Below are positions 10,529-37,097 of a stretch of 43,581 nucleotides of DNA, in pieces. The notes under the pieces were generated by a model. That model searched no databases. It was not told the DNA's origin and saw nothing but the letters and a program-made list of their open reading frames with translations. The position numbers and the translations under genes are program-made. The stretch is from a virus (taxonomy: Duplodnaviria > Caudoviricetes), in IMG/VR virus record IMGVR_UViG_3300018476_000006, positions 1-43,581 of that record. One strand, written 5' to 3'. The first letter of the stretch is position 1; every line of letters begins with the position of its first letter.

Positions 10529-10936
10529 ATGCCCAAGGGCACCCAGACCCCCGTCCCGGTCTCCCAGAACACGCTGGCGCCCTACCAGAAGGCCAAGGGG
10601 CACGTCAAAATGCGGACCCTGCGCCAGCTGATTGATAGGTACGCCGGGAAGGACGGCGAGAAAATTGTGCAGTGTTTGGCCGTGCTGGCGTTCGGCGATT
10701 CGGAGGGCCGGCGCAACCTGTTCGGGGAGCACGTCAAGGCCGACGCCTCGATTCGGATGCGCGCGCTGGAGGTGCTGGCCGCCCGGCGCTGGGGGCAGGT
10801 GCCGCAGATTCTGGACCCCACCGGCGACCCCAATTCGATGCCCGTCACCATCGTCAACGTCTACTCGCCCGTGCCCATTGGGTCAGATGCCCCAGAACAG
10901 AAAACCATCCCCGCCAAAGCCGTGAGGAGTGCATGA
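10529..10936 (+). CDS. terS: putative terminase small subunit
   Basis: Two genes upstream of TerL; 135 aa; IRMRALEVLAARRWGQVPQ helix pattern typical of TerS. Confidence 0.6.
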   Translation: MPKGTQTPVPVSQNTLAPYQKAKGHVKMRTLRQLIDRYAGKDGEKIVQCLAVLAFGDSEGRRNLFGEHVKADASIRMRALEVLAARRWGQVPQILDPTGDPNSMPVTIVNVYSPVPIGSDAPEQKTIPAKAVRSA

Positions 10937-11187
10937 AGCTGAACCTCGACCGCCTGTTCCGCTACCACCGCCCCGAGGGCACGCAGCCCGACCGCTACGC
11001 GCGCCTGCGCGCCGCCGCCCGCACCTACGCCGACACCATCGCGGAACTGACCCCGGAGTCGCCCGAGCAGACCCTCGCGCTGCGCGCGGTCCACCTCGCC
11101 TCGATGCACGCCAACAGCGCCATCGCCGTCAACGAGGAGGCCGACCAGTGGACGCCGCCGGCGGCAGCGGAGACCCCGGCGGTCTGA
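10933..11187 (+). CDS. Acb2/Tad1-like helical-hairpin protein (candidate immune-signal sponge)
   Basis: FRYHRP..TQ..RY..LR.AA..YA..I....P.S.E..LAL......MHANSAIA pattern; GAGGAG RBS; coupled to both neighbours. Confidence 0.65.
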   Translation: MKLNLDRLFRYHRPEGTQPDRYARLRAAARTYADTIAELTPESPEQTLALRAVHLASMHANSAIAVNEEADQWTPPAAAETPAV

Positions 11188-12740
11188 TGCCGGCCACCTC
11201 CGACCTTGTGGTGCGGCGCGGCCGGCGGGTGGTCGAGCACCGCTGGAACCCGGTGCAGTCGCGCTTCCTGCTGGCCTCGGCGGCCGAGCACCCCTACATC
11301 GATCTGGAGGGCGCGGTGCGCGCCGGCAAGACCACGCCGCTGGTGGCCAAGGTGGCCGGCTACTGCGTCGACTTCCCGGGCATCCACTGCGCGCTGGCGC
11401 GCTGGACGCAGGACGGCCTCGACGCCCAGCTGAAGCCCCGGTGGCGCGACTGGTGCCAGCACAACGGCCTCGCCCTGCGCTACCACGCCGACGAGGAGTA
11501 TGACGAGGTGGTCGCCACCGGCAGCCGCGTCTACCTGCGCGCGCTCAAGAGCAGCGAGGAGACCAGCCGCTACGGCAAGCTGGCCGGCCTCACGCTCGCG
11601 GTGCTGGGCATCGACCAGCCCGAGGAGGTGCCCGAGGATGTCTACCGCGCCTTTGTGCCGGCGCGCCTGTCGCAGGTCGGCTACCCACATCAAGTGCTGC
11701 TGACGCCCAACCCGCCGGGCGAGACCCACTGGCTCGCGCGCGACTTCCCGGTCAGCAACACGCGCCCCGGCCACCTCTACCTGCGGACCAGCGTCTACGA
11801 CAACCGCCACAACCTCGGCGACCTCTACATCGGCGCGCTGGAAGCCGCCTACCCCGCCGGCCACGCGCTGCGCCGGCGCTTCATCGAGGGCAAGCGCGGC
11901 CTCGCGGTGGTGGGCGAGCCGGTCTACGGGTCGACCTTCAACAGCAACCTGCACGTCGGGCCGACCCGGCTGAACCCGCATGTGCCGCTGCTGGAGGCGT
12001 GGGACTTCGGCCACAAGCACCCCAGCGTCGTGTGGTCGCAGATCATGCCGTGGGGCCAGCTGGTCATCCACGGCGGCATCATGGGCGTCGACCAGTTCAT
12101 CGAGGACTTCACGCCGGCGGTGCTCGCGCAGCGCGCGACGTGGTTCTGGCCCGAGGACGACGCCGAGGACGGCGTGCCCTTCGACATCCAGAGCACCGGT
12201 GACCCGGCCGGCGACCAGAACAACAGCCAAGGCACGTCGACCAGCGCGGCCGACATCCTGCGCGAGTATGGCGTCAGCCTCTACACCATCCCGGGCGCCA
12301 ACCACATCGACGCGCGCGACCGCTGCATCCAGCACGTCGCCGGCTACCAGCGGCGCCTCACGCGCACCGGGCCGGCGTTCTACGTCGACCCCGACCGCTG
12401 GCTGCTCCTCGCCACCGACGGCCCGCGCTTCAGCACCCACTTTGTCGACGCGCTGGAGGCCGGCTACGTCTGGGACGAGCGGGTGTTTGCGACCACGCTG
12501 TCGCCCAACACGCGGCGCCCGCGCAAGGACGGCTACTACGACCACTGCATGAACTGCTTGGAGTACACGGTGCTGGCCTACGGGCCGGCGCAGCCCACCA
12601 AGGTGGACGCCGCCAAGGCCGAGCGGCAGGCGCTCGCGCGCAGCCAGCGTGACCTCGATCCGGTGGGACGCGGCGACGGCGGCAGCAGCAAACACGGCGG
12701 GCGCTTCGGCGGCGGCCCGCGTCGGATCCGCTTCCGGTGA
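11187..12740 (+). CDS. terL: terminase large subunit
   Basis: Walker A GAVRAGKT, Walker B-like LGIDQPEE, LLTPNP coupling motif, nuclease WDFG, GDPAG, DHCMNCLEY. Confidence 0.93.
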   Translation: MPATSDLVVRRGRRVVEHRWNPVQSRFLLASAAEHPYIDLEGAVRAGKTTPLVAKVAGYCVDFPGIHCALARWTQDGLDAQLKPRWRDWCQHNGLALRYHADEEYDEVVATGSRVYLRALKSSEETSRYGKLAGLTLAVLGIDQPEEVPEDVYRAFVPARLSQVGYPHQVLLTPNPPGETHWLARDFPVSNTRPGHLYLRTSVYDNRHNLGDLYIGALEAAYPAGHALRRRFIEGKRGLAVVGEPVYGSTFNSNLHVGPTRLNPHVPLLEAWDFGHKHPSVVWSQIMPWGQLVIHGGIMGVDQFIEDFTPAVLAQRATWFWPEDDAEDGVPFDIQSTGDPAGDQNNSQGTSTSAADILREYGVSLYTIPGANHIDARDRCIQHVAGYQRRLTRTGPAFYVDPDRWLLLATDGPRFSTHFVDALEAGYVWDERVFATTLSPNTRRPRKDGYYDHCMNCLEYTVLAYGPAQPTKVDAAKAERQALARSQRDLDPVGRGDGGSSKHGGRFGGGPRRIRFR

Positions 12741-12869: not shown

Positions 12870-13532
12870 ATGGTGCGAACCTGTCTGCTGCTCGTCGTCG
12901 GCCTGCTGCTGCTCCCCCTGCCTGTCGGCGCCACCCAGATCGTGGGGTTCGGGCAGCTGGGGTCGACCAACACGTTCATCGCCACCAACAACGGGGACGG
13001 CACCACCGACCTCGCGGTGACGACCGGCGTCAGTATCACCAACATCATCAGCGGGGCGACCGACCCCAACGCGCTGCTGACCTTTGAAGCCGAGTCGACC
13101 ACGGCGGCCTCGCTGCTGGGCGGCAGCATCATCACGCAGAGCTTTGAGGGCACCTTCTCGCTGACCAACGCGGCGGGCACCTTCGAATACCTCGGCGGCA
13201 CCTTCGGCGGCGCGCTGATGCTGGGCGGCAACGGCGGCACCGGGTCGCTGTTCAGCGCCAACACGGCGCTGCTGTCGCCGCTGGTGCTGACCACCGACCT
13301 GCCGGTGTTCCTGCAGAACCCGGAGAGCTTCTCGCTGTCGCTGTCCAACGTCAACCCGCCGTTCAGCATCGGCGCCGACGGCAGCATCGCCAGCTTCACC
13401 GCGAGCTTCACCGGCACGGCCGACGCCACAGTGACAGCCGCCCCCGTCCCAGAGCCGGGGTCGCTGATGCTGTTGGGCAGCGGTCTGCTGGGGCTGGCCA
13501 GCGCCGCGCGCAAGCGATGGCGCCGAGCCTAG
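12870..13532 (+). CDS. PEP-CTERM sorting-domain surface protein
   Basis: Signal peptide, Ser/Thr/Gly-rich body, C-terminal VPEPGSLMLLGSGLLGLASAARKRWRRA; TATACT 12837 and GAGGAGG RBS. Confidence 0.93.
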   Translation: MVRTCLLLVVGLLLLPLPVGATQIVGFGQLGSTNTFIATNNGDGTTDLAVTTGVSITNIISGATDPNALLTFEAESTTAASLLGGSIITQSFEGTFSLTNAAGTFEYLGGTFGGALMLGGNGGTGSLFSANTALLSPLVLTTDLPVFLQNPESFSLSLSNVNPPFSIGADGSIASFTASFTGTADATVTAAPVPEPGSLMLLGSGLLGLASAARKRWRRA

Positions 13533-13678
13533 TCCCGCGTCGGGCGACGGTGGTCGCACTGCCACTGGTGCTGGTCACCGTCGCCGCCCGCACGCTCGGC
13601 GCGCACAGCCCGAGCGGCACCGGATCCCTCGCCCCGTCGCCGAGCGCCGGCGGGGTGTTCACGCCGCCAGCGGAGTAG
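13517..13678 (+). CDS. 53-aa hypothetical peptide with hydrophobic N-terminus
   Basis: Fills the gap between PEP-CTERM gene and ATG 13681. Confidence 0.35.
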   Translation: MAPSLVPRRATVVALPLVLVTVAARTLGAHSPSGTGSLAPSPSAGGVFTPPAE

Positions 13679-13680
13679 CG

Positions 13681-13989
13681 ATGCAGACACGCGGCACGTT
13701 CCCGGCGCTCTACACCACAGACCTCCCGAGGAGCACGTCCATGACGACCGCCAGCACCCAGACCGCCCCCGGCAAGAAGAACGGCGACGAGACCAAGGAC
13801 GCCAAGGACGAGCGCGAGAGCCTCGCCGAACTGGCCAGCCGCCTCGGCCTGCGCGATGCCGAGGGCAAGCTCGACCTTGAGGCCGCCAAGCGGGTGCTCG
13901 ACAGCGAGGTCGAGGCCGAGATGGCCAAGAAGAAGGCCGAGGCCGAGGCCAAGAAGGCCGCCGAGGCGCCCGAGCCAGCCAAGAAGTAG
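13681..13989 (+). CDS. small Lys/Glu/Ala-rich protein, two possible starts (13681, 13741); long form begins with capsid-like peptide
   Basis: GGAG before 13681, CCGAGGAG before 13741; MQTRGTFPALY vs MCP MQVRGTFAALY. Confidence 0.75.
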   Translation: MQTRGTFPALYTTDLPRSTSMTTASTQTAPGKKNGDETKDAKDERESLAELASRLGLRDAEGKLDLEAAKRVLDSEVEAEMAKKKAEAEAKKAAEAPEPAKK

Positions 13990-13992
13990 CCG

Positions 13993-16146
13993 ATGCCGCC
14001 CCCGGAGCGCCCGTCGCCGTTTGACGTGAAGCTGTCGGCAGAGCAGACCACCGCGCTGGAAGGGTTCCTCTACGACGAGATCACCCGTGCCGTCGCGGCG
14101 CGGGCGCCCATCGTGTCGCCCGGGGGCGACCTCGACTACTGGCACTGGCTCTACGACCAAGGCAAACGCAACACCTCGGAGTTGCCCTTCCCCGGGGCCG
14201 CTGACCTGTCGACGTGGCTGGTCACCGAGAAGATCGACGCCCTGCGCGGGCGCTTCGTCAAGACCATCTTTGTCGAGCCGGTGTGGACCGTCGAGGGCTG
14301 GGGCAAGGCCGCCGAGCGCGCCCCGCTGGTTGAGGAGTTCCACCAGTGGAAGGTGGAAGACGAGCGCCTGCAGGCGTGGCTGCAGCGCACCTTCGACCTC
14401 GCGCTGGTCGAGGGCACCGGCGTGCTGGAGTGCGTCGAGAAGGCCGACCTCATCAAGCGCAAGAGCCTCAAGCAGGTGCAGCCGCAGCGCACCGACACCG
14501 GCGCCGTGCTGTTCGGCCCCGACAGTCAGCCGCAGCTGATGCAGGACGCGCGCGGCCGGCTGATGGAGGCCGAGGACGCCGACGAGAGCGGCGCGGTCGA
14601 GGCCGAGGTGGACGAGGTCATGCCGGCGCGGCGCGGCCCGACCTACCGCAACATCAGCCTGCGCGACTTCTTCTTCCTGCCCGGCCACGCGCAGGACGAC
14701 TCCGAGGTGTGGGGCTACGCCAAGCGGTTCTGGCGCCGCATCAGTGAACTGCAGCAGCGCGCCGACGAGGGCACCTACGACGCCGAGGCGGTGGGCCGGC
14801 TGGCCGAGGTGGCTGACCGCGACGACTCGACGCTGCCCGGGCCGGTCGCGGCCACCGGCCAGACCGTGGCGCCGCAGGACAAGCGCACCACCATCGAGAA
14901 GGAACTGTGGGAACTGCAGGTGCTGATGGACTTGGACGAGGACGGGGTGGACGAGTGGTACATCGTCACCTTCTCGGCCATTCACCGGGTCATCCTGCGG
15001 GTGCGCCACGACGACCTCGGGCTGCCGCGCTTCCTGTGCTTCCGGCCCTACCCGAACCCGCTGTCGGTCTACGGCCGCAGCCACGTCGCCAAGCTGGCCA
15101 GCCTCGCCGAGGAGCACGCCGGCACGCGCAACGCCATCGCCGACCGCTCCAACCTCGTCAACAACGCCCCGGTCAAGCGCAAGGCGTCGTCCGCGTGGGA
15201 CATCGAGGAGGAGCCGTGGGGGCCGGGCGCGGTCATCACCGTCAACGACATGGGCGAGATCGAGCCGGTGGCGCTGCCCGACGTGCCCAACAGCATGATG
15301 TCGCGCGAGACCGCGATCATCGCCGCCGGCGAGCGCGTCAGCGGCCTCAACGACGTGGCGCTGGGCGCGACCCCCGGGGAGTCGCGCACGCTCGGCGAGG
15401 TCAACATGGTGACCGAGCAGAGCTTCGTCCGCATCGAAGAGAGCATCCGCAACATGCAGGAGGCGCTGGAAGACCTCTTCCGGGTGCGCCATGAACTGTG
15501 GCGCCGCGCCGCCGCCGAGCAGCCGCTGGAACCCAGCGCGCGCTTCATCCGCGAACTGGCCCTGCGCGGCATCGAGATGGCCGAGGGCGGCATCACGCCC
15601 GAGGTGCTGGCCGGGACGTTCCACGGGAAACCACGCGGCAGCGTCGAGAGCGCCGACCGCAACCGCCAGCGCCAGAACTACAACGGCTTCATGCAGGCGG
15701 TCGCCGGCTTCGGGCAAATGAACCCGCAGCTGCAGCAGGTGCTGGCCAGCCCGCAGGTCATCATGCCGCTGTTCGAACAGGCGCTGCGCCTCTACGACGT
15801 GCCCAACCGCGCGCAGTTCATGCGGGCGATGCGCGAGTGGGAGATGCAGCTGTTGCAGCAGCAGCAGATGGCCCAGCAGCAGGCCGCCATGGGGATGCCG
15901 CCGCCCGGGATGCCGGGCCAGCCGCAACTGCCCCCGGGCGCGCCGCCGCCGCCGGGAGGACCGCCGCCACCGGGCGGCCCGCAGGCGGGACCACCGCCAC
16001 CCGGAGGACCGCCGCCACCCCCGGGGCCGCCACCGGGACCGCCGATGGGCGGGCCGCCGCCGCCGGGCAACCCCGCCGCGATGGGGCCACCGCCGCCGGA
16101 ACTGATGGCGCAGCTGCAGGGCCAGCAGCCGCCGGTGCTCCAGTAG
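13993..16146 (+). CDS. portal protein with Pro/Gly/Gln-rich C-terminal tail
   Basis: 717 aa, downstream of TerL; RNISLRDFFFLP, YGRS, ERVSGLND..LG, RTLGEV pattern of podoviral portals. Confidence 0.82.
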   Translation: MPPPERPSPFDVKLSAEQTTALEGFLYDEITRAVAARAPIVSPGGDLDYWHWLYDQGKRNTSELPFPGAADLSTWLVTEKIDALRGRFVKTIFVEPVWTVEGWGKAAERAPLVEEFHQWKVEDERLQAWLQRTFDLALVEGTGVLECVEKADLIKRKSLKQVQPQRTDTGAVLFGPDSQPQLMQDARGRLMEAEDADESGAVEAEVDEVMPARRGPTYRNISLRDFFFLPGHAQDDSEVWGYAKRFWRRISELQQRADEGTYDAEAVGRLAEVADRDDSTLPGPVAATGQTVAPQDKRTTIEKELWELQVLMDLDEDGVDEWYIVTFSAIHRVILRVRHDDLGLPRFLCFRPYPNPLSVYGRSHVAKLASLAEEHAGTRNAIADRSNLVNNAPVKRKASSAWDIEEEPWGPGAVITVNDMGEIEPVALPDVPNSMMSRETAIIAAGERVSGLNDVALGATPGESRTLGEVNMVTEQSFVRIEESIRNMQEALEDLFRVRHELWRRAAAEQPLEPSARFIRELALRGIEMAEGGITPEVLAGTFHGKPRGSVESADRNRQRQNYNGFMQAVAGFGQMNPQLQQVLASPQVIMPLFEQALRLYDVPNRAQFMRAMREWEMQLLQQQQMAQQQAAMGMPPPGMPGQPQLPPGAPPPPGGPPPPGGPQAGPPPPGGPPPPPGPPPGPPMGGPPPPGNPAAMGPPPPELMAQLQGQQPPVLQ

Positions 16147-16485
16147 ATGCCCCCACGCACCGACGACCAGCTGCAGGCCGCCCTCGACGCCCTTGACGAC
16201 CTCACGCGCCACCCCGGCTGGGCGCTGGTGGTCGAGCACGCGCAGGTGCGGTTCGGCGGCAAGGCCTTCATCAGCGCCATCGGGGACGCCGCGCGCTGCG
16301 ACACCGCCGACGCGGTCGCGCTGAAGGTGCGCGAGGTGGTCGGGCAGCGGGACGCCGCCACCGCGCTGGTCGAGTTCCCGCACCGCGAGGCCACGGTGCT
16401 CAAGGCCGAGCAGCGCACGCGCGGCAAGGCCAAGGCCGCCGCGCAGGGTGACTACTTCGGCCCCAACGTCGAGGTCACCCTGTGA
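16147..16485 (+). CDS. hypothetical protein following portal
   Basis: LDDLTRHPGW motif; abuts portal. Confidence 0.75.
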   Translation: MPPRTDDQLQAALDALDDLTRHPGWALVVEHAQVRFGGKAFISAIGDAARCDTADAVALKVREVVGQRDAATALVEFPHREATVLKAEQRTRGKAKAAAQGDYFGPNVEVTL

Positions 16486-16793
16486 CGCCGTCGGTGCCGC
16501 TACCGGCGGCGCTACGGCCCGACTTGGTGCTGGTGGCGCTGGCCCCGCGCGAGCGCGTCACGCGCCCCAGTGGCGTCGTGGTGCTGCCGGCCAACCGCAT
16601 CATCGTGGACCGGATCGGCGTGGTGCTGCAGGTCGGCGCCGCCGTGACGGAGGTCGCGCCCCACGGGGTGGTGCTGTTCGACAGCAACGTCGGCGAAGAG
16701 GTGTTAGTGGACGGTTGGCCGTGTCTGCTCCTGCGCGTGCAGGACATCGACGCGGTCTTGGAGAGGGACCATGCCAGACGACGTAGTGCTTGA
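16482..16793 (+). CDS. groES: GroES/Cpn10-like co-chaperonin
   Basis: PDLVLV, mobile loop TRPSGVVVLP, GVVLQVG, VLFDSNVGEEVLVDG, LLRVQDIDAVL. Confidence 0.85.
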   Translation: MTPSVPLPAALRPDLVLVALAPRERVTRPSGVVVLPANRIIVDRIGVVLQVGAAVTEVAPHGVVLFDSNVGEEVLVDGWPCLLLRVQDIDAVLERDHARRRSA

Positions 16794-17718
16794 AGGCCCG
16801 ACCGACGAACCCGTGATGGGGATGCCCGGCGGGGCCGCGCCCATCACCGAACCCGGCCCGCCGGTGACCCAGCCGCCCCCGGGCGACGAACCCCCGCCGC
16901 CGGATGACCCCGACGCCATCCCCGACGAGGACGAGACCCCCGACGACCCGCGCCCCAAGCGCACGCTGGTGGGCGATCTGGTCTCCGAGCGCGAGCGCCG
17001 GCAGAAGGCCGAGACCGAGGCCGAGCAGGCGCAGGCGCTGGTGCGCGCGGTGCTGGAGGCGCCCGGCGGCTTCGAACTGCTGCAGCGCGCCGCCACCGGC
17101 CAGCCGGCGCCGACCCAGCAGGCGGCCGAGCAGGAGGCGCTGCGGCAGGAACTGGAGGCCACCGCCATCGATCTGGGCCTCTACGACGCGGAGGGCAACC
17201 CCGACCTCAAGACCGCCTACCGCATCAGCCAGCGCGAGGAGCGCCGGCTGACCAAGCTGGTCGAGCAGGCCGTGGCGCCGCTGCGGCAGCAGACGCAGGC
17301 GCAGACCGCTGCGGCCGTCATCGCGCACGTCAAGGGCGTGGCGCAGCACTACGGCATCGACCCCGAGATGGTCGAGCGCGGGATGCGGACCCTGCCGGCT
17401 GACCAGATGACCAACCCCGAGGTGCAGCAGACCGTGCTGATGACCGCGCTGGGCCTGCAGACCTTTGGCGCGGTGCCCGGGCAGACGCCCCCGCCGCGCG
17501 CACGCGGGCAGCTGGCGCAGCCGCCGCAGCCCAATGGCGGGCGGGGCACGCTGCGGCCGCCCCTCTACTCGGAGCCGGCCGGCGGCCGCCCGCGCGGGCA
17601 GGCGCCGCAGCTGGATCAGTCGTTCCGCGACCGCCTGCGCGGCAGCGGCCTCAAGGACGCCGAGATCGACTCGGCCGTCGCGCGCTTTGTGCCCGGCACG
17701 CCGCTGGCACTGGAGTAA
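16771..17718 (+). CDS. putative capsid scaffolding protein
   Basis: Acidic Pro-rich N-terminus, ERERRQKAE coiled coil, upstream of capsid genes. Confidence 0.65.
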   Translation: MPDDVVLEGPTDEPVMGMPGGAAPITEPGPPVTQPPPGDEPPPPDDPDAIPDEDETPDDPRPKRTLVGDLVSERERRQKAETEAEQAQALVRAVLEAPGGFELLQRAATGQPAPTQQAAEQEALRQELEATAIDLGLYDAEGNPDLKTAYRISQREERRLTKLVEQAVAPLRQQTQAQTAAAVIAHVKGVAQHYGIDPEMVERGMRTLPADQMTNPEVQQTVLMTALGLQTFGAVPGQTPPPRARGQLAQPPQPNGGRGTLRPPLYSEPAGGRPRGQAPQLDQSFRDRLRGSGLKDAEIDSAVARFVPGTPLALE

Positions 17719-19118: not shown

Positions 19119-20036
19119 ATGCAGGTTCGCGGGACTTTTGCAGCCCTCTACGACAACGTCGACAAGACCGTCTACGCGCTGCTGGGCAAGCAGCTGAAGG
19201 AACTGCCGCCGATCTGGCCCGAGGTCTACGGCAAGAAGAACAGCAGCCGGAAGTTCGAACGGTTCCAGACGGTCACGCCGTTTGGGGACGTGCCGGAAAA
19301 GCCCGAGGGCAGCGTCTACGCCTTCGACCTCATCCGGCCCGGCTACAGCAAGGACATCACGCCGGTCGAGTTCGGCCTCGGCTTTGAGGTCACCGAGACC
19401 GCGCTGGAAGACGACCAGTACGACGTGCTGCAGCGGCAGGCGGCGTGGCTGGCCTTCTCGTCGCGCGTCGTGCAGGAGAAGTATGCGGCGATCCCGTTCA
19501 ACAACGGGTTCACCACCCAGCTGACGCCCGACGGCGTGTCGCTCTTCAACGTCGCGCACGTTCTGGCCGGCGGGGGCACGGCGCGCAACCGGCCGGCGAC
19601 CGACGCCGACCTGTCGTTCGACAGCCTCTCGCAGGCCATCATCGACGTGCAGACCGACACCAAGCTGGAGAGCGGCCAGCTGGTGGCGCCGGTGATGTCG
19701 TGGATCCTCTACGTGCCCCCGCATCTGGAGATGCTGGCCGAGCGGATCGTCAACAGCACCCAGCTGCCCGGGGTCGCCGACAACGACCTCAACCCCATCA
19801 AGAAGCGGCGCAACATCCGCATCGTGGTCAACCCCTATTTGACCGACACCGATGCGTGGTTCCTCGTCGCCTCCGACAAGAACACGCACGGGCTGGTCTG
19901 CGTCGACCGGCTCGGCATCACGGCCGCGCCGGCGATGCAGGATCCCCGCACCGGCAACCGCATCTACAAAGTGCGGTTCCGGCAGGCGTGGGATGCGTTC
20001 CTCTGGCAGAACGTCTACGGGACCGCCGGCGCCTAG
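19119..20036 (+). CDS. major capsid protein (HK97 fold, Mu gpT-like)
   Basis: TAAGGAG RBS; KPEG, FGLGFEVTETALEDDQY, DGVSLFNVAH, LYVPPHL, NPYLTDTDAWF. Confidence 0.9.
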   Translation: MQVRGTFAALYDNVDKTVYALLGKQLKELPPIWPEVYGKKNSSRKFERFQTVTPFGDVPEKPEGSVYAFDLIRPGYSKDITPVEFGLGFEVTETALEDDQYDVLQRQAAWLAFSSRVVQEKYAAIPFNNGFTTQLTPDGVSLFNVAHVLAGGGTARNRPATDADLSFDSLSQAIIDVQTDTKLESGQLVAPVMSWILYVPPHLEMLAERIVNSTQLPGVADNDLNPIKKRRNIRIVVNPYLTDTDAWFLVASDKNTHGLVCVDRLGITAAPAMQDPRTGNRIYKVRFRQAWDAFLWQNVYGTAGA

Positions 20037-34700: not shown

Positions 34701-37097
34701 GGGGTGATCCCGGCGGCGGGCAGGGTCGGCCGGCGGCTGGTCGCAGGCCTCAAGGCGGGCGGCATGGACGCGCTGGTGGGGCCGGCGCTCGCGCTGGGCG
34801 CCGAGGGGCTGGTGGACGACCCGCTGGTGGCCGCCATCCTGCCCGACCGGGCCGACCGCGAGCAGCTGGCGCAGTGGGTGCGGCTGGGCGGCGCCGCCTC
34901 GCTGCCGGCGGTGCTGATGGCGAAGGGCGGCAAGGCCAAGGCCGGCGCGCCCGTGCCCCACCCGGAGACCGGCATCCTGCACGCCGACGGCCAGCCGGTG
35001 GTCTTCCATCACGGCAGCACGTCGCGCGACATCGCCGTGACCGACCTCGACCCCGGGCGCGAGGGCGTGCGGCCCCGGTCGGGTGCCGCCGGCCTGTCGT
35101 TCACGACCGACCCGCGCGCCGCCAGCGGCTACACGCGCCCGCCAAAGGCCGGCATCAAGACGCCGGCCGGCCGAGTGCTGGCCGCGCAGCTGGTGATGCG
35201 GAACCCGCTGGACATCACCGACGCCATCAAGCGCGGCCAGAAGAAGGGTCTGAGCTTCGGGGACGCCAAGCGCGAGGCGCTCAAGGCGCTGACGCCCGAG
35301 CACGACGGCGTGATCTTCCGGGGCGACCGTGTCAACCCCGACGAGTATCAAGTGTTTTCGCGGGAGCAGGTGCGCGCGCCCGAGGCCGCCGAGGCCAACG
35401 ACACCGGCCGCGAGCGGCGCGAACGCTTGGCGGCCAAGCCCAAGACGCCGCCGGTCACCGGCGAGCCGCCCGAGGTGCCCATCGAGACCGGGCTGGTGGC
35501 GCCGTCGGGGCAGTCGCTGTCGGATGCGGTCGAGGCGCCGATCCTCCTCGGCCCGACGGGCAAGGTGGTCTCGGGCAAGAAGCCGACCGCCGGCCCGGTG
35601 CGCCTTGGCGTGAAGGCGACCACGCGCGCGTCGACCATCCACGCGGCGATCCTCGGCGGCGGCTACAGCGTCGACCTCAAGACCGGCGTGGTCCCCGACA
35701 CCGGCACCTTCAGCGGCCTCTACCCGAACTACGACACCAAGAACGTGCTGGTGGTGCCCAAGGCGCAGTTCACGCAGCAGCACATCAAGAACTATGTCGC
35801 CCAGATGCAGGGCGAACTGCGGAAGCCCGAGCGGTATCTGGGCGGCTGGGTCGACACCGCCGGCGACACCGAGGCCGGCAAGGCGCTGCGCGCGGCCGGC
35901 GACGACGCGGGCGCTGAGAAGCTGCGGCAGGCGTCGGGCGACCCGTCGGCGCAGTATCCGCTGGGCACCGAACTGGTCTACCTCGACGTGCCCAAACGCT
36001 TCGCCGACGACACGCTCGTCAAGGGGAAGCCGGCGCCGAACCTCGGCCTGCAGATCCGGCAGGCGACCAAGACGGGCGAAGGCCCGCTGGCGCTGGACCC
36101 GAACCAAGCCACGCGCGAGGCCGGCGCGCAGAAGGCCGTCTACACCGCCGACGCCGGCATCCCCGCGCACCTGCGCGCGGGCGGCGGGTTCACCAACGTC
36201 AAGAACTGGCGGTCGTTCATCGAGGGACCGGTCTACGAGCGCCGCTACCATGAGCAGGCGCAGCGCGGCGACGAGTGGCTCAAGACGCAGGGCGGGCAGG
36301 CGTGGTGGAAGCTGCACGGTAGCATCATCGAGCACGTCTACGGTCCCGATCTGATGAAGCAGGCCGCCGGGTTCCTCGCCGCGACCTCGCCGCGCACCAG
36401 CGTGCATGAGAACATCCGGCAGGCGTCGGTCTATCTGCAGCGCGTCATCCGAGGCGAGCCGCTGATCCAGCCCGACTGGCGCATGACCGGCGGCCAGCAC
36501 TACGGCAAGAACGGGCCGATCCAGATGCCCATGGAGACCGTGCGCGTCGGGGCGCTGGAGCGCGCGGCGCGCGGCGAGAAGGTGGCGCAGTTCAAGATCG
36601 GCGACATGCAGGGCGCGCTGATGGGCGAACCCGATCCGGTCACCGCCGACACGCACCACGGCAAGCTGGGCGAAGACCCGACCGAGGGGATCTATCTCAG
36701 CACGGTGCCGGGGAAGATCACCGACGAGCAGTACCCGATTATGAAAGCCGTGATGCAGGCGCACGGCCGCGCCAAGGGGCAGACGCCGGCCGACTACAGC
36801 GCGAAGGTGTGGTCGGGCATCATCGAAACCATCAAGGCCGAGGGCGGTCTCTACGGCACGCCCTATCAGCTGACGGCCTCGGACGCCACGCCGCTGTTCA
36901 CGCAGTTCGAACAGATCCTCGGCAAGGTCGCCACGCACCACGGCTACCCGCTGGACGAGTTCATCGCGCGCGTGCGCGCCGGCGATGCGAACCTCATGGC
37001 CGCGCTGCTGTCGACCGGCGTGGGCGCCAGCCTCTACGCGAAGTGGCTGCAGGCCGACGAGGCGGGCGAGGGCGAGGGCGCGCCGCCGGCGTCGTAG
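31800..37097 (+). CDS. large polyvalent ejection protein with ART-PolyVal-like ADP-ribosyltransferase and DUF7178-like domains
   Basis: DGQPVVFHHGS, GLSFTTD...ASGY, MRNPLD, HDGVIF, DEYQVFSREQV (~34980-35375); LAATSPRTSVHEN, VTADTH, PADYSAKVW (~36300-36812). Confidence 0.75.
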   Translation: MSDKSSGLLSFDEIAGVVATPAEVRAGTTSGGRSASMGGYGALADIGYGAARWLGQGAYNVGKTVYDTPLGGLFDNIMGGLSGKGAEAQAKEGAALFGMPSAEEEAAAAPSAQDEYLKRILAEAEERKRQAALARTPGSRRAATGALTPEADDPAARFTLDTKALVDAENETLQPVPEATLPSEAKPPAEYGTLEGALQFQNPREAATGTALDVASSLAPNPVSRAEIIMALSRTAPRAARFLLAHPRLGNAAINAVREGAMGAGLGAFQEADPYTGAGYGTALGALLPPSLGPQPGRITAARESLADAATRSAQQRAGQAFSPSTNPNKRFVERNWERMTREAPTWTNLERVQQQAQRAADTAGAQLREHFANIRQPNQTAGLRRTTAALTRAGNLLLSHGVELAPQTRENLQSVVGALRGLNPRSTNLHTLRNAHGMVIDALHEAGRENRRISQLMMHNTVRQVFDNAAQAGVVPASRRAMVTGGLGIEDVANAVTPSRVNTRPILRQLQRAQQRHFQHRSDAGRWITDDQLGFDNLQTLIDQIAQNGNEINLDTLRSIRQSWDNIVAGGAGTGFLADNIADESKRGAHRIARGVLSDRMAATTPEVVPLNRAYSYHQNVADVVAATPRRRTGQTKGPLAGIAATAGVGFGTHRGDDETSAGDALGSLTAGALAWYATRLIKSPNWNLLSAKIRLKVADALRRGNTSVLRHTLARAEGYLHRRAAGRAGPDFAEQDNDLSDDESDAQLQRILGGYALEPGVTAPARDASEIPDPIEDGDEDDDNEAGVQPGIDTLDIGVPGVDPLVPGSRLTPDAHEAIEGEEAANRAEPGREARKAELQRAGFSGRELREMLRGGASLVDKVSQPLLEGPDLPGWPRTEKFLGALSQFTSPMDIASVGTSVARPLLGTATRVGRVVEGVGRGIGAATALQGAEGMVEGVEQGDPLRFAGGAVGTALGGAGMRSGGVIPAAGRVGRRLVAGLKAGGMDALVGPALALGAEGLVDDPLVAAILPDRADREQLAQWVRLGGAASLPAVLMAKGGKAKAGAPVPHPETGILHADGQPVVFHHGSTSRDIAVTDLDPGREGVRPRSGAAGLSFTTDPRAASGYTRPPKAGIKTPAGRVLAAQLVMRNPLDITDAIKRGQKKGLSFGDAKREALKALTPEHDGVIFRGDRVNPDEYQVFSREQVRAPEAAEANDTGRERRERLAAKPKTPPVTGEPPEVPIETGLVAPSGQSLSDAVEAPILLGPTGKVVSGKKPTAGPVRLGVKATTRASTIHAAILGGGYSVDLKTGVVPDTGTFSGLYPNYDTKNVLVVPKAQFTQQHIKNYVAQMQGELRKPERYLGGWVDTAGDTEAGKALRAAGDDAGAEKLRQASGDPSAQYPLGTELVYLDVPKRFADDTLVKGKPAPNLGLQIRQATKTGEGPLALDPNQATREAGAQKAVYTADAGIPAHLRAGGGFTNVKNWRSFIEGPVYERRYHEQAQRGDEWLKTQGGQAWWKLHGSIIEHVYGPDLMKQAAGFLAATSPRTSVHENIRQASVYLQRVIRGEPLIQPDWRMTGGQHYGKNGPIQMPMETVRVGALERAARGEKVAQFKIGDMQGALMGEPDPVTADTHHGKLGEDPTEGIYLSTVPGKITDEQYPIMKAVMQAHGRAKGQTPADYSAKVWSGIIETIKAEGGLYGTPYQLTASDATPLFTQFEQILGKVATHHGYPLDEFIARVRAGDANLMAALLSTGVGASLYAKWLQADEAGEGEGAPPAS

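Follow-up and report, generated by a model that had tools for sequence, protein, structure and literature searches.

Microviruses such as phiX174 and SpV4 encode J/VP8, a short, highly basic peptide of which one end is docked on the capsid interior, and the available part of the account in PMC11281519 does not say that this docking end is copied from the capsid protein. We report here on a small gene of a tailed phage whose presumed docking end is homologous to the N-terminal arm (N-arm) of the phage's own major capsid protein (MCP). The short relatives of its product have the two-part plan of J/VP8 with reversed polarity, 48 of them with a net charge of +5 to +8. The product itself differs from J/VP8 in that it is 102 residues long, has a net charge of −1 (19 Lys plus Arg, 20 Asp plus Glu) and carries a scaffold motif; moreover, J/VP8 belongs to ssDNA phages and the present gene to a dsDNA phage with a terminase, a portal and an HK97-fold MCP.

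The capsid targeting sequence of T4 is not derived from gp23 and is removed by the gp21 protease. It is a conserved N-terminal tag, with which diverse cargos are taken into the scaffolding core (PMC3012670, in the part available). Similarly, one N-terminal tag heads several unrelated cargos in the phages studied here; unlike the T4 internal proteins, however, the present protein has no PHROG match, and its tag matches its own MCP. Another T4 protein, gp61.1 (54 aa, annotated as hypothetical), matches residues 70 to 93 of gp23 at 14 of 24 positions (its residues 15 to 38) and continues with a lysine run. Both gp61.1 and the present protein carry a copy of the N-terminal region of the MCP of their own phage, but gp61.1 has a leader before the copy, no scaffold copy, no known function and a gene in the replication region.

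The small protein CpmB of SaPIs sits at the interface of scaffold and N-arm in the procapsid, where competition alters assembly (PMC5644958, accessible portion). CpmB is encoded by a parasite and replaces the capsid-binding end of the scaffold, whereas the parts copied here, an arm and an internal motif of the scaffold, come from the phage itself. In T7, the genes for gp6.7 and gp7.3 are located just upstream of the portal gene. Both are small structural proteins of podophage virions with roles in the core and in nozzle assembly, for which the available part of PMC11784390 describes no likeness to a capsid arm. Our search of openly accessible literature listed no description of an MCP-arm copy. 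The element described here is a selected, widespread copy of the capsid arm that resembles capsid-addressed internal peptides in its plan and stands outside their families by profile or by host type.

Results

The head module

The window is the whole 43,581-nt stretch of DNA that was analyzed (IMG/VR record IMGVR_UViG_3300018476_000006, Caudoviricetes). Its head genes follow the order terminase, PEP-CTERM gene, 53-aa ORF, small gene, SU10-type portal, 112-aa ORF, GroES, putative scaffold, two ORFs and HK97-fold MCP (Table 1), and PHROG and Pfam searches identified no head protease gene in the annotated module. In the MCP model (pLDDT 67.6), residues 1 to 6 are extended and residues 7 to 28 form the N-arm helix; Foldseek matched this model to HK97-fold capsids and encapsulins, and no solved sequence relative of the MCP was found. 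No GenBank phage matches the portal of the window, GenBank matches to the MCP are 28 to 36% identical, no close relative in culture was found, and a search of genome collections for related loci gave three short ones.

A PEP-CTERM protein gene (12870-13532) lies between terminase and portal, with homologues in the head region of loci L003, L011, L014, L017, L018, L020 and L022. Its presence in a head operon is unusual and may point to an exosortase-bearing host.

Table 1. Features of the head module in the window
Feature	Positions	Strand	Basis or remark
Terminase large subunit	10929..12740	+	phrog_2, E 7e-17; true start probably further downstream
53-aa ORF	13517..13678	+	Stop 2 nt 5' of start 13681; translational coupling inferred
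Small gene, long form, 102 aa	13681..13989	+	Consists of the arm copy, a linker, the copied scaffold motif and an Ala/Glu/Lys tail
Copy of MCP residues 1-11 (inferred docking tag)	13681..13713	+	9/11 identity, HH match, family-wide conservation
Linker with internal ribosome-binding site (13728-13733)	13714..13740	+	In-frame second start; duplex energies in the clade
82-aa short form, from second start	13741..13989	+	Form usually recorded by gene callers
Residues 45-75, copy of conserved helix-hairpin-helix scaffold motif	13813..13905	+	BLASTP, HMM and HH comparison
Portal protein	13993..16146	+	PF23899 SU10_portal, E 3e-21; phrog_1216
GroES-like co-chaperonin	16482..16793	+	PF00166, E 1.4e-4, above cut-off
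Putative scaffolding protein; source motif residues 125-152 (17143-17226)	16771..17718	+	Position, model and weak matches; inferred
Major capsid protein, HK97 fold	19119..20036	+	PF25209, PF10124, phrog_371

The small gene opens with a copy of the capsid N-arm

A first-pass annotation made from the DNA sequence had claimed that the 102-aa ORF and the MCP share 9 of their first 11 residues, and this is borne out; the mismatches are Thr/Val at position 3 and Pro/Ala at position 8. Four of the shared residues use different synonymous codons in the two genes, as was also claimed, and 24 of 33 bases are identical. A chance match is excluded, since among the approximately 87,000 11-mers in the six reading frames of the window an identity of 9/11 is unique to this ORF and the runner-up reaches 5/11. 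Profile comparison of the tag with the MCP gave an HH probability of 94 (E 1.7e-7), and 8 of the 11 positions are invariant across seven homologues of the protein. An arm-like stretch at 35694, within an ORF of 1,781 aa, scored 17 compared with 31 to 36 for real copies, and was dismissed as being at chance level.

Profile searches with the 102-aa protein returned no PHROG or Pfam family above cut-off. A Pfam match to PP_M1, below cut-off, was discarded. A complex prediction for the small protein with two N-terminally trimmed copies of the MCP scored 0.06 (mark, 0.32), which speaks neither for nor against binding. Among 21 runs, no source of RNA was listed.

The arm copy is conserved upstream of the portal gene

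A degenerate motif pattern matched viral contigs 42 times. Of these matches, 37 belong to this phage family and lie beside a terminase or portal gene; the other five, outside the family, were treated as chance. To avoid circularity, a matrix was built from MCP N-termini only, and the sequence upstream of each related portal was scanned with it over at most 2.5 kb. The scan gave 146 locus rows, many of them duplicated. When these were reduced to distinct loci having 1 kb of flank or more, 65 remained, the window among them. The portals of these loci are 36 to 90% identical, and 61 of the 65 loci have an arm copy closely upstream of the portal (one, L156, was admitted by eye on a small margin). 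Two of the remaining four, L284 and G001, have the copy elsewhere, and L127 and L152 are 17-19% fragments; the copy is retained somewhere in 63 of 65 loci. The first-pass annotation had called the peptide optional. The comparison reverses this picture: the peptide is the element conserved throughout the family, and the 82-aa part is an addition specific to one clade.

In 48 of the 61 loci with a copy, the product measures 21 to 38 aa. Counted from a conserved Gln onward, these short forms have a mean net charge of 6.8 (s.d. 0.63), on tails that are merely 35% identical at the median. Redrawn tails had an s.d. of 2.6, and none of 2,000 draws was as tight as the observed charge under this null, which ignores relatedness. 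Besides basic tails, the same tag heads the protein with the scaffold motif and at least five other long cargos; in loci of other clades (L080, L140, L165, L268 and L321) it is fused to other, basic cargos.

Several loci have further small features. The short basic peptides of L098, L103, L154, L156, L166, L219 and L220 end in cysteine, as do neighboring small basic genes in L016 and L168. A frame of the form CxxC...CxxC lies just upstream of the peptide, in frame with it in L007, L011, L014, L018 and L022 and out of frame in L008 and L019. ORFs are inserted in the head module of L168 (9080-15211), where the MCP lies more than 7 kb from the portal; we take these inserts to resemble methyltransferases and a sialic-acid-synthase-like enzyme.

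The amino acids are under selection and tend to follow the cognate MCP

The proposal of selection at the protein level agrees with the family data, in which amino acids are kept and synonymous positions are free. Among 61 distinct motifs, the codons for Pro, Leu, Gln and Gly are almost fixed at positions 1 and 2 and free at position 3, and Ser is encoded from both of its codon families. L284 carries a second version of MCP codons 1 to 19, located 5.8 kb downstream of the first; the two differ at 4 of 57 bases, each time synonymously (p 0.0045 under neutrality). This copy (15755-16054, one contig) leads in frame through a basic linker with a ribosome-binding site to a second ATG and a small gene. 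L284, which is without the usual pre-portal peptide, appears to have reached the linker and second-start layout of the window independently.

These data bear on the possibility that the extension is a mere translated spacer, handing ribosomes on to the gene that follows, or a leftover of MCP duplication that evolves neutrally. Young duplicates such as that in L284 do arise, a stop codon lies near the start in 42 of 58 loci, and the upstream start is without a good ribosome-binding site in 8 of 9 loci of the window's clade. However, neither a spacer nor a remnant would be expected to keep its amino acids while synonymous change is free across such divergent portals, to gain 4 synonymous and 0 replacement changes in a fresh copy, or to hold the charge of the short forms constant, and we consider this explanation very improbable.

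The relation between peptide and cognate MCP was assessed in 40 pairs, 8 of which were matched across loci of one contig; L001, L151, L193 and L284, for which the scanned flank has no copy, and rows under the score or margin limit were excluded. With one pair per MCP cluster, similarity to the own MCP was 27.7 versus 22.6 after shuffling (16 clusters) and 27.2 versus 22.3 (10 clusters), with a median p of 0.005. Peptides share 0.45 of their codons with their own MCP versus 0.39, and DNA-level homogenization was on this ground rejected as the general cause of tracking, although fresh duplication is still seen in L284. In 4 of the 40 pairs, peptide and MCP alike have Asn in place of Phe7; in the other 36 the change is absent from either partner, and the sister locus L174 has Phe in both.

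Other observations weaken the association. In a tree-aware test on disjoint paths, which had a median of 12 pairs, 7 were positive and 2 negative (p about 0.11, range 0.07 to 0.34), and there were too few pairs for single-site tests. The L016 peptide departs from its own MCP, and His11 is shared in 1 of 8. In the window's clade the MCP arm is constant and the peptides vary. The basic peptide of G001 (L509) is relocated, lying on the minus strand some 1 kb upstream of the MCP, and has Asn where the MCP has Phe; its motif equals the MCP arm of another clade and not its own, which suggests an exchange of modules. Pro8 is present in 59 of 61 peptides, and Arg4, invariant in 16 of 16 MCPs, is found in 13 of 61 peptides, which implies that the copy has constraints of its own. 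Hence, the covariation that the first-pass annotation had proposed to look for exists as a tendency and not as a rule, and tracking of the cognate MCP appears from these sequences to be real but imperfect.

A copy that tends to follow its cognate MCP could also serve as a decoy for host defense sensors that recognize capsid protein, and capsid-sensing defenses exist. Anti-defense genes are typically patchy and early, unlike the arm-copy gene, which is retained in nearly all loci and sits in a late operon. Furthermore, a decoy has no need for a tail of fixed charge or for a scaffold copy. The decoy, which had also been suggested from the window, therefore fits poorly, and we regard it as improbable.

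The window's clade has two starts in one frame

The second in-frame ATG at 13741 is preceded by a purine-rich site, as had been noted, and this two-start layout is confirmed and kept in all nine loci of the clade. The duplex energy is −8.1 at this start and −6.1 at 13681, compared with −7.2 for the 5th percentile of random sites. Throughout the clade, the second start is codon 19, 20 or 21, always in frame, with duplex energies of −5.8 to −9.3, and linker indels preserve the reading frame. The upstream start has a weak ribosome-binding site and lies 2 to 6 nt 3' of a stop, each in 8 of the 9 loci. The portal start is placed likewise, in the window 3 nt 3' of the stop of the small gene, where a strong ribosome-binding site is absent. 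Judged from this arrangement, the tagged 102-aa form would be made from the coupled upstream start and the untagged 82-aa form from the internal site. Databases tend to hold the latter: the ESM Atlas entry is for the 82-aa form only, and the homologues P0002 and P0003 are annotated from the second start, yet their loci L085 and L095 show the extension.

A second copied motif comes from the putative scaffold

The remainder of the protein had been described as a charged helix. This description needs revision, as residues 45 to 75 match an internal motif of the putative scaffold. BLASTP aligned residues 45 to 72 with scaffold residues 125 to 152 (14/28 identical, E 6e-5). An HMM of 37 scaffold sequences, run against 47,930 ORFs, found eight small proteins as its sole non-scaffold matches (E 7e-7 to 7e-3), and comparison with the scaffold motif profile gave an HH probability of 90 (E 1.5e-6). 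Of the 10 nearly invariant columns in the scaffold alignment, which comprises 55 of 72 sequences, 3 fall in the motif. The scaffold model, which is all-helical (pLDDT 84) and ends in two short helices, shows the motif with confidence as a helix-hairpin-helix. The assignment of the scaffold itself is putative and draws on position, model and weak matches. Three of 55 family members match scaffold PHROGs weakly (E 0.002 to 0.005); the best BFVD match, also weak (E 7e-3), is a scaffold, the weak matches are to scaffolds only, and no fold match was found in the PDB.

By sequence, the double copy of capsid and scaffold is a feature of the window's clade. The long forms of this clade are neutral to acidic (−8 to 0) and have no basic tail after the tag, so the role of the window's protein may differ from that of the family. 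In L003 (4150), L025 (4181) and L107, long forms of 219 to 258 aa have disordered Asp/Arg/Gly-rich tails 3' of the scaffold-motif copy.

Arm copies occur in distant and cultured phages

We read the flanks of 12 GenBank regions with MCPs about 28 to 36% identical to that of the window. In CRP-901 (gp63) and HTVC023P (gp50), small basic annotated genes are the best match to the phage's own, quite different MCP arm. The match in HTVC027P is tied: gp82 (L331:31070-32089) is a Gly-rich protein of 339 aa that starts like its own MCP, possibly a tagged large cargo. A match in Pag-Yong1 was set aside because it is antisense to an annotated gene, and the flanks of 8 of the 12 regions hold no arm copy.

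Among CRP-901-like loci, which are 87 to 100% alike and not independent, the peptide is the top match in all 53 with enough flank; across 80 such loci, scores of at least 28 were reached by 52 with their own arm, by 0 with the arm of the window and by 4 with the reversed arm. In HTVC023P-like loci, read by eye, the peptide is the top match in 8 of 26 with 5 kb of downstream flank, and another distant MCP group has no copy in the flanks of the 11 loci scanned. The marine peptides (L329, L345-L424) lie 2.6 to 2.9 kb upstream of the MCP, have charges of +12 to +20 and often contain a second Met after the arm copy. The capsid-arm likeness is absent from the available part of the CRP-901 description (PMC10149686). 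PHROG profile searches assigned T4 gp61.1 to its family, phrog_1823/2086 (E 3e-33), and gave no match to any family for the window's protein, P0004, CRP-901 gp63, HTVC023P gp50 and the L284 copy.

The peptide gene of CRP-901 is two genes upstream of GroES, and in the window GroES is part of the same module. Such proximity might suggest that the peptide acts via the GroES folding pathway for the capsid protein, another suggestion of the first-pass annotation. However, DSL-LC04, QDWS535 and others have GroES and no copy in the region read, and to our knowledge chaperonins do not read a sequence tag. As no finding favors this pathway, we give it hardly any credence.

Discussion

Published structures offer several sites for a free copy of the arm. 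According to the available parts of these accounts, the MCP N-arm contacts the scaffold in procapsids (PMC5644958, PMC6813328), lies between neighboring capsomers after expansion (PMC6813328) and surrounds the portal stem (PMC6795507), and at the portal vertex the hexons must compensate for a missing penton (PMC12407722). For a free copy that varies together with the arm, the simplest reading is binding where the arm itself binds. We read the first 11 codons as a selected copy of the capsid N-arm, likely a docking tag that brings cargo into the assembling head, with a probability of roughly 0.5. The tag would bind the site that the real MCP arm would bind, and docking in the procapsid is plausible from the sequences; candidate partners are the scaffold, a neighboring capsid subunit or an empty site at the portal vertex. 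In most relatives the cargo would be the tail of near-constant charge (about +7), presumably in contact with the packaged DNA. We hypothesize that the basic-tailed forms would act like J/VP8 of microviruses and the varied cargos like those of the T4 capsid targeting sequence. In the window's clade, the neutral cargo with its scaffold-motif copy may act as a small adapter within the scaffold core, a mini-scaffold.

Could the protein instead control assembly without entering the virion? The arm copy would then compete with the MCP for scaffold or portal, and the scaffold copy with the self-association of the scaffold, tuning nucleation, portal incorporation or scaffold release, with the ratio of the two forms as the dose. 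Both copied motifs do come from head-assembly proteins, the window's family couples the gene to that of the portal, and SaPI CpmB provides a precedent in which competition at the scaffold-binding site changes assembly (PMC5644958, in part). However, such a regulator leaves the near-fixed tail charge of the 48 short forms unexplained, and the gene is sometimes far from the portal (L284, G001 and the marine phages). On balance, we think a non-virion regulator unlikely, although it is the most probable of the rivals.

Starting from the docking tag, we tentatively propose, at somewhat less than even odds, an unrecognized class of self-mimic microproteins in tailed phages. Its members would be born repeatedly from the 5' end of the capsid gene, plug spare N-arm sites of the procapsid and bring in a defined amount of positive charge or some other cargo, and the window's clade would represent a two-isoform double mimic of capsid and scaffold that steers head assembly. 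Annotation overlooks the peptide, either because of its very small size or because a second start conceals it. The cultured phages CRP-901, HTVC023P and T4 (gene 61.1) make the reading testable.

The copied stretches would mark residues of MCP and scaffold that form assembly interfaces. If the docking reading is true, the tag is a new, self-derived encapsidation signal, with which heads could be loaded with cargo. According to the available part of PMC7096446, dsDNA phages that package their genome by a motor are without the genome-neutralizing basic arms of small viruses. If our reading is correct, this neutralization would be provided in trans by a free peptide that is addressed to the capsid and nearly fixed in charge.
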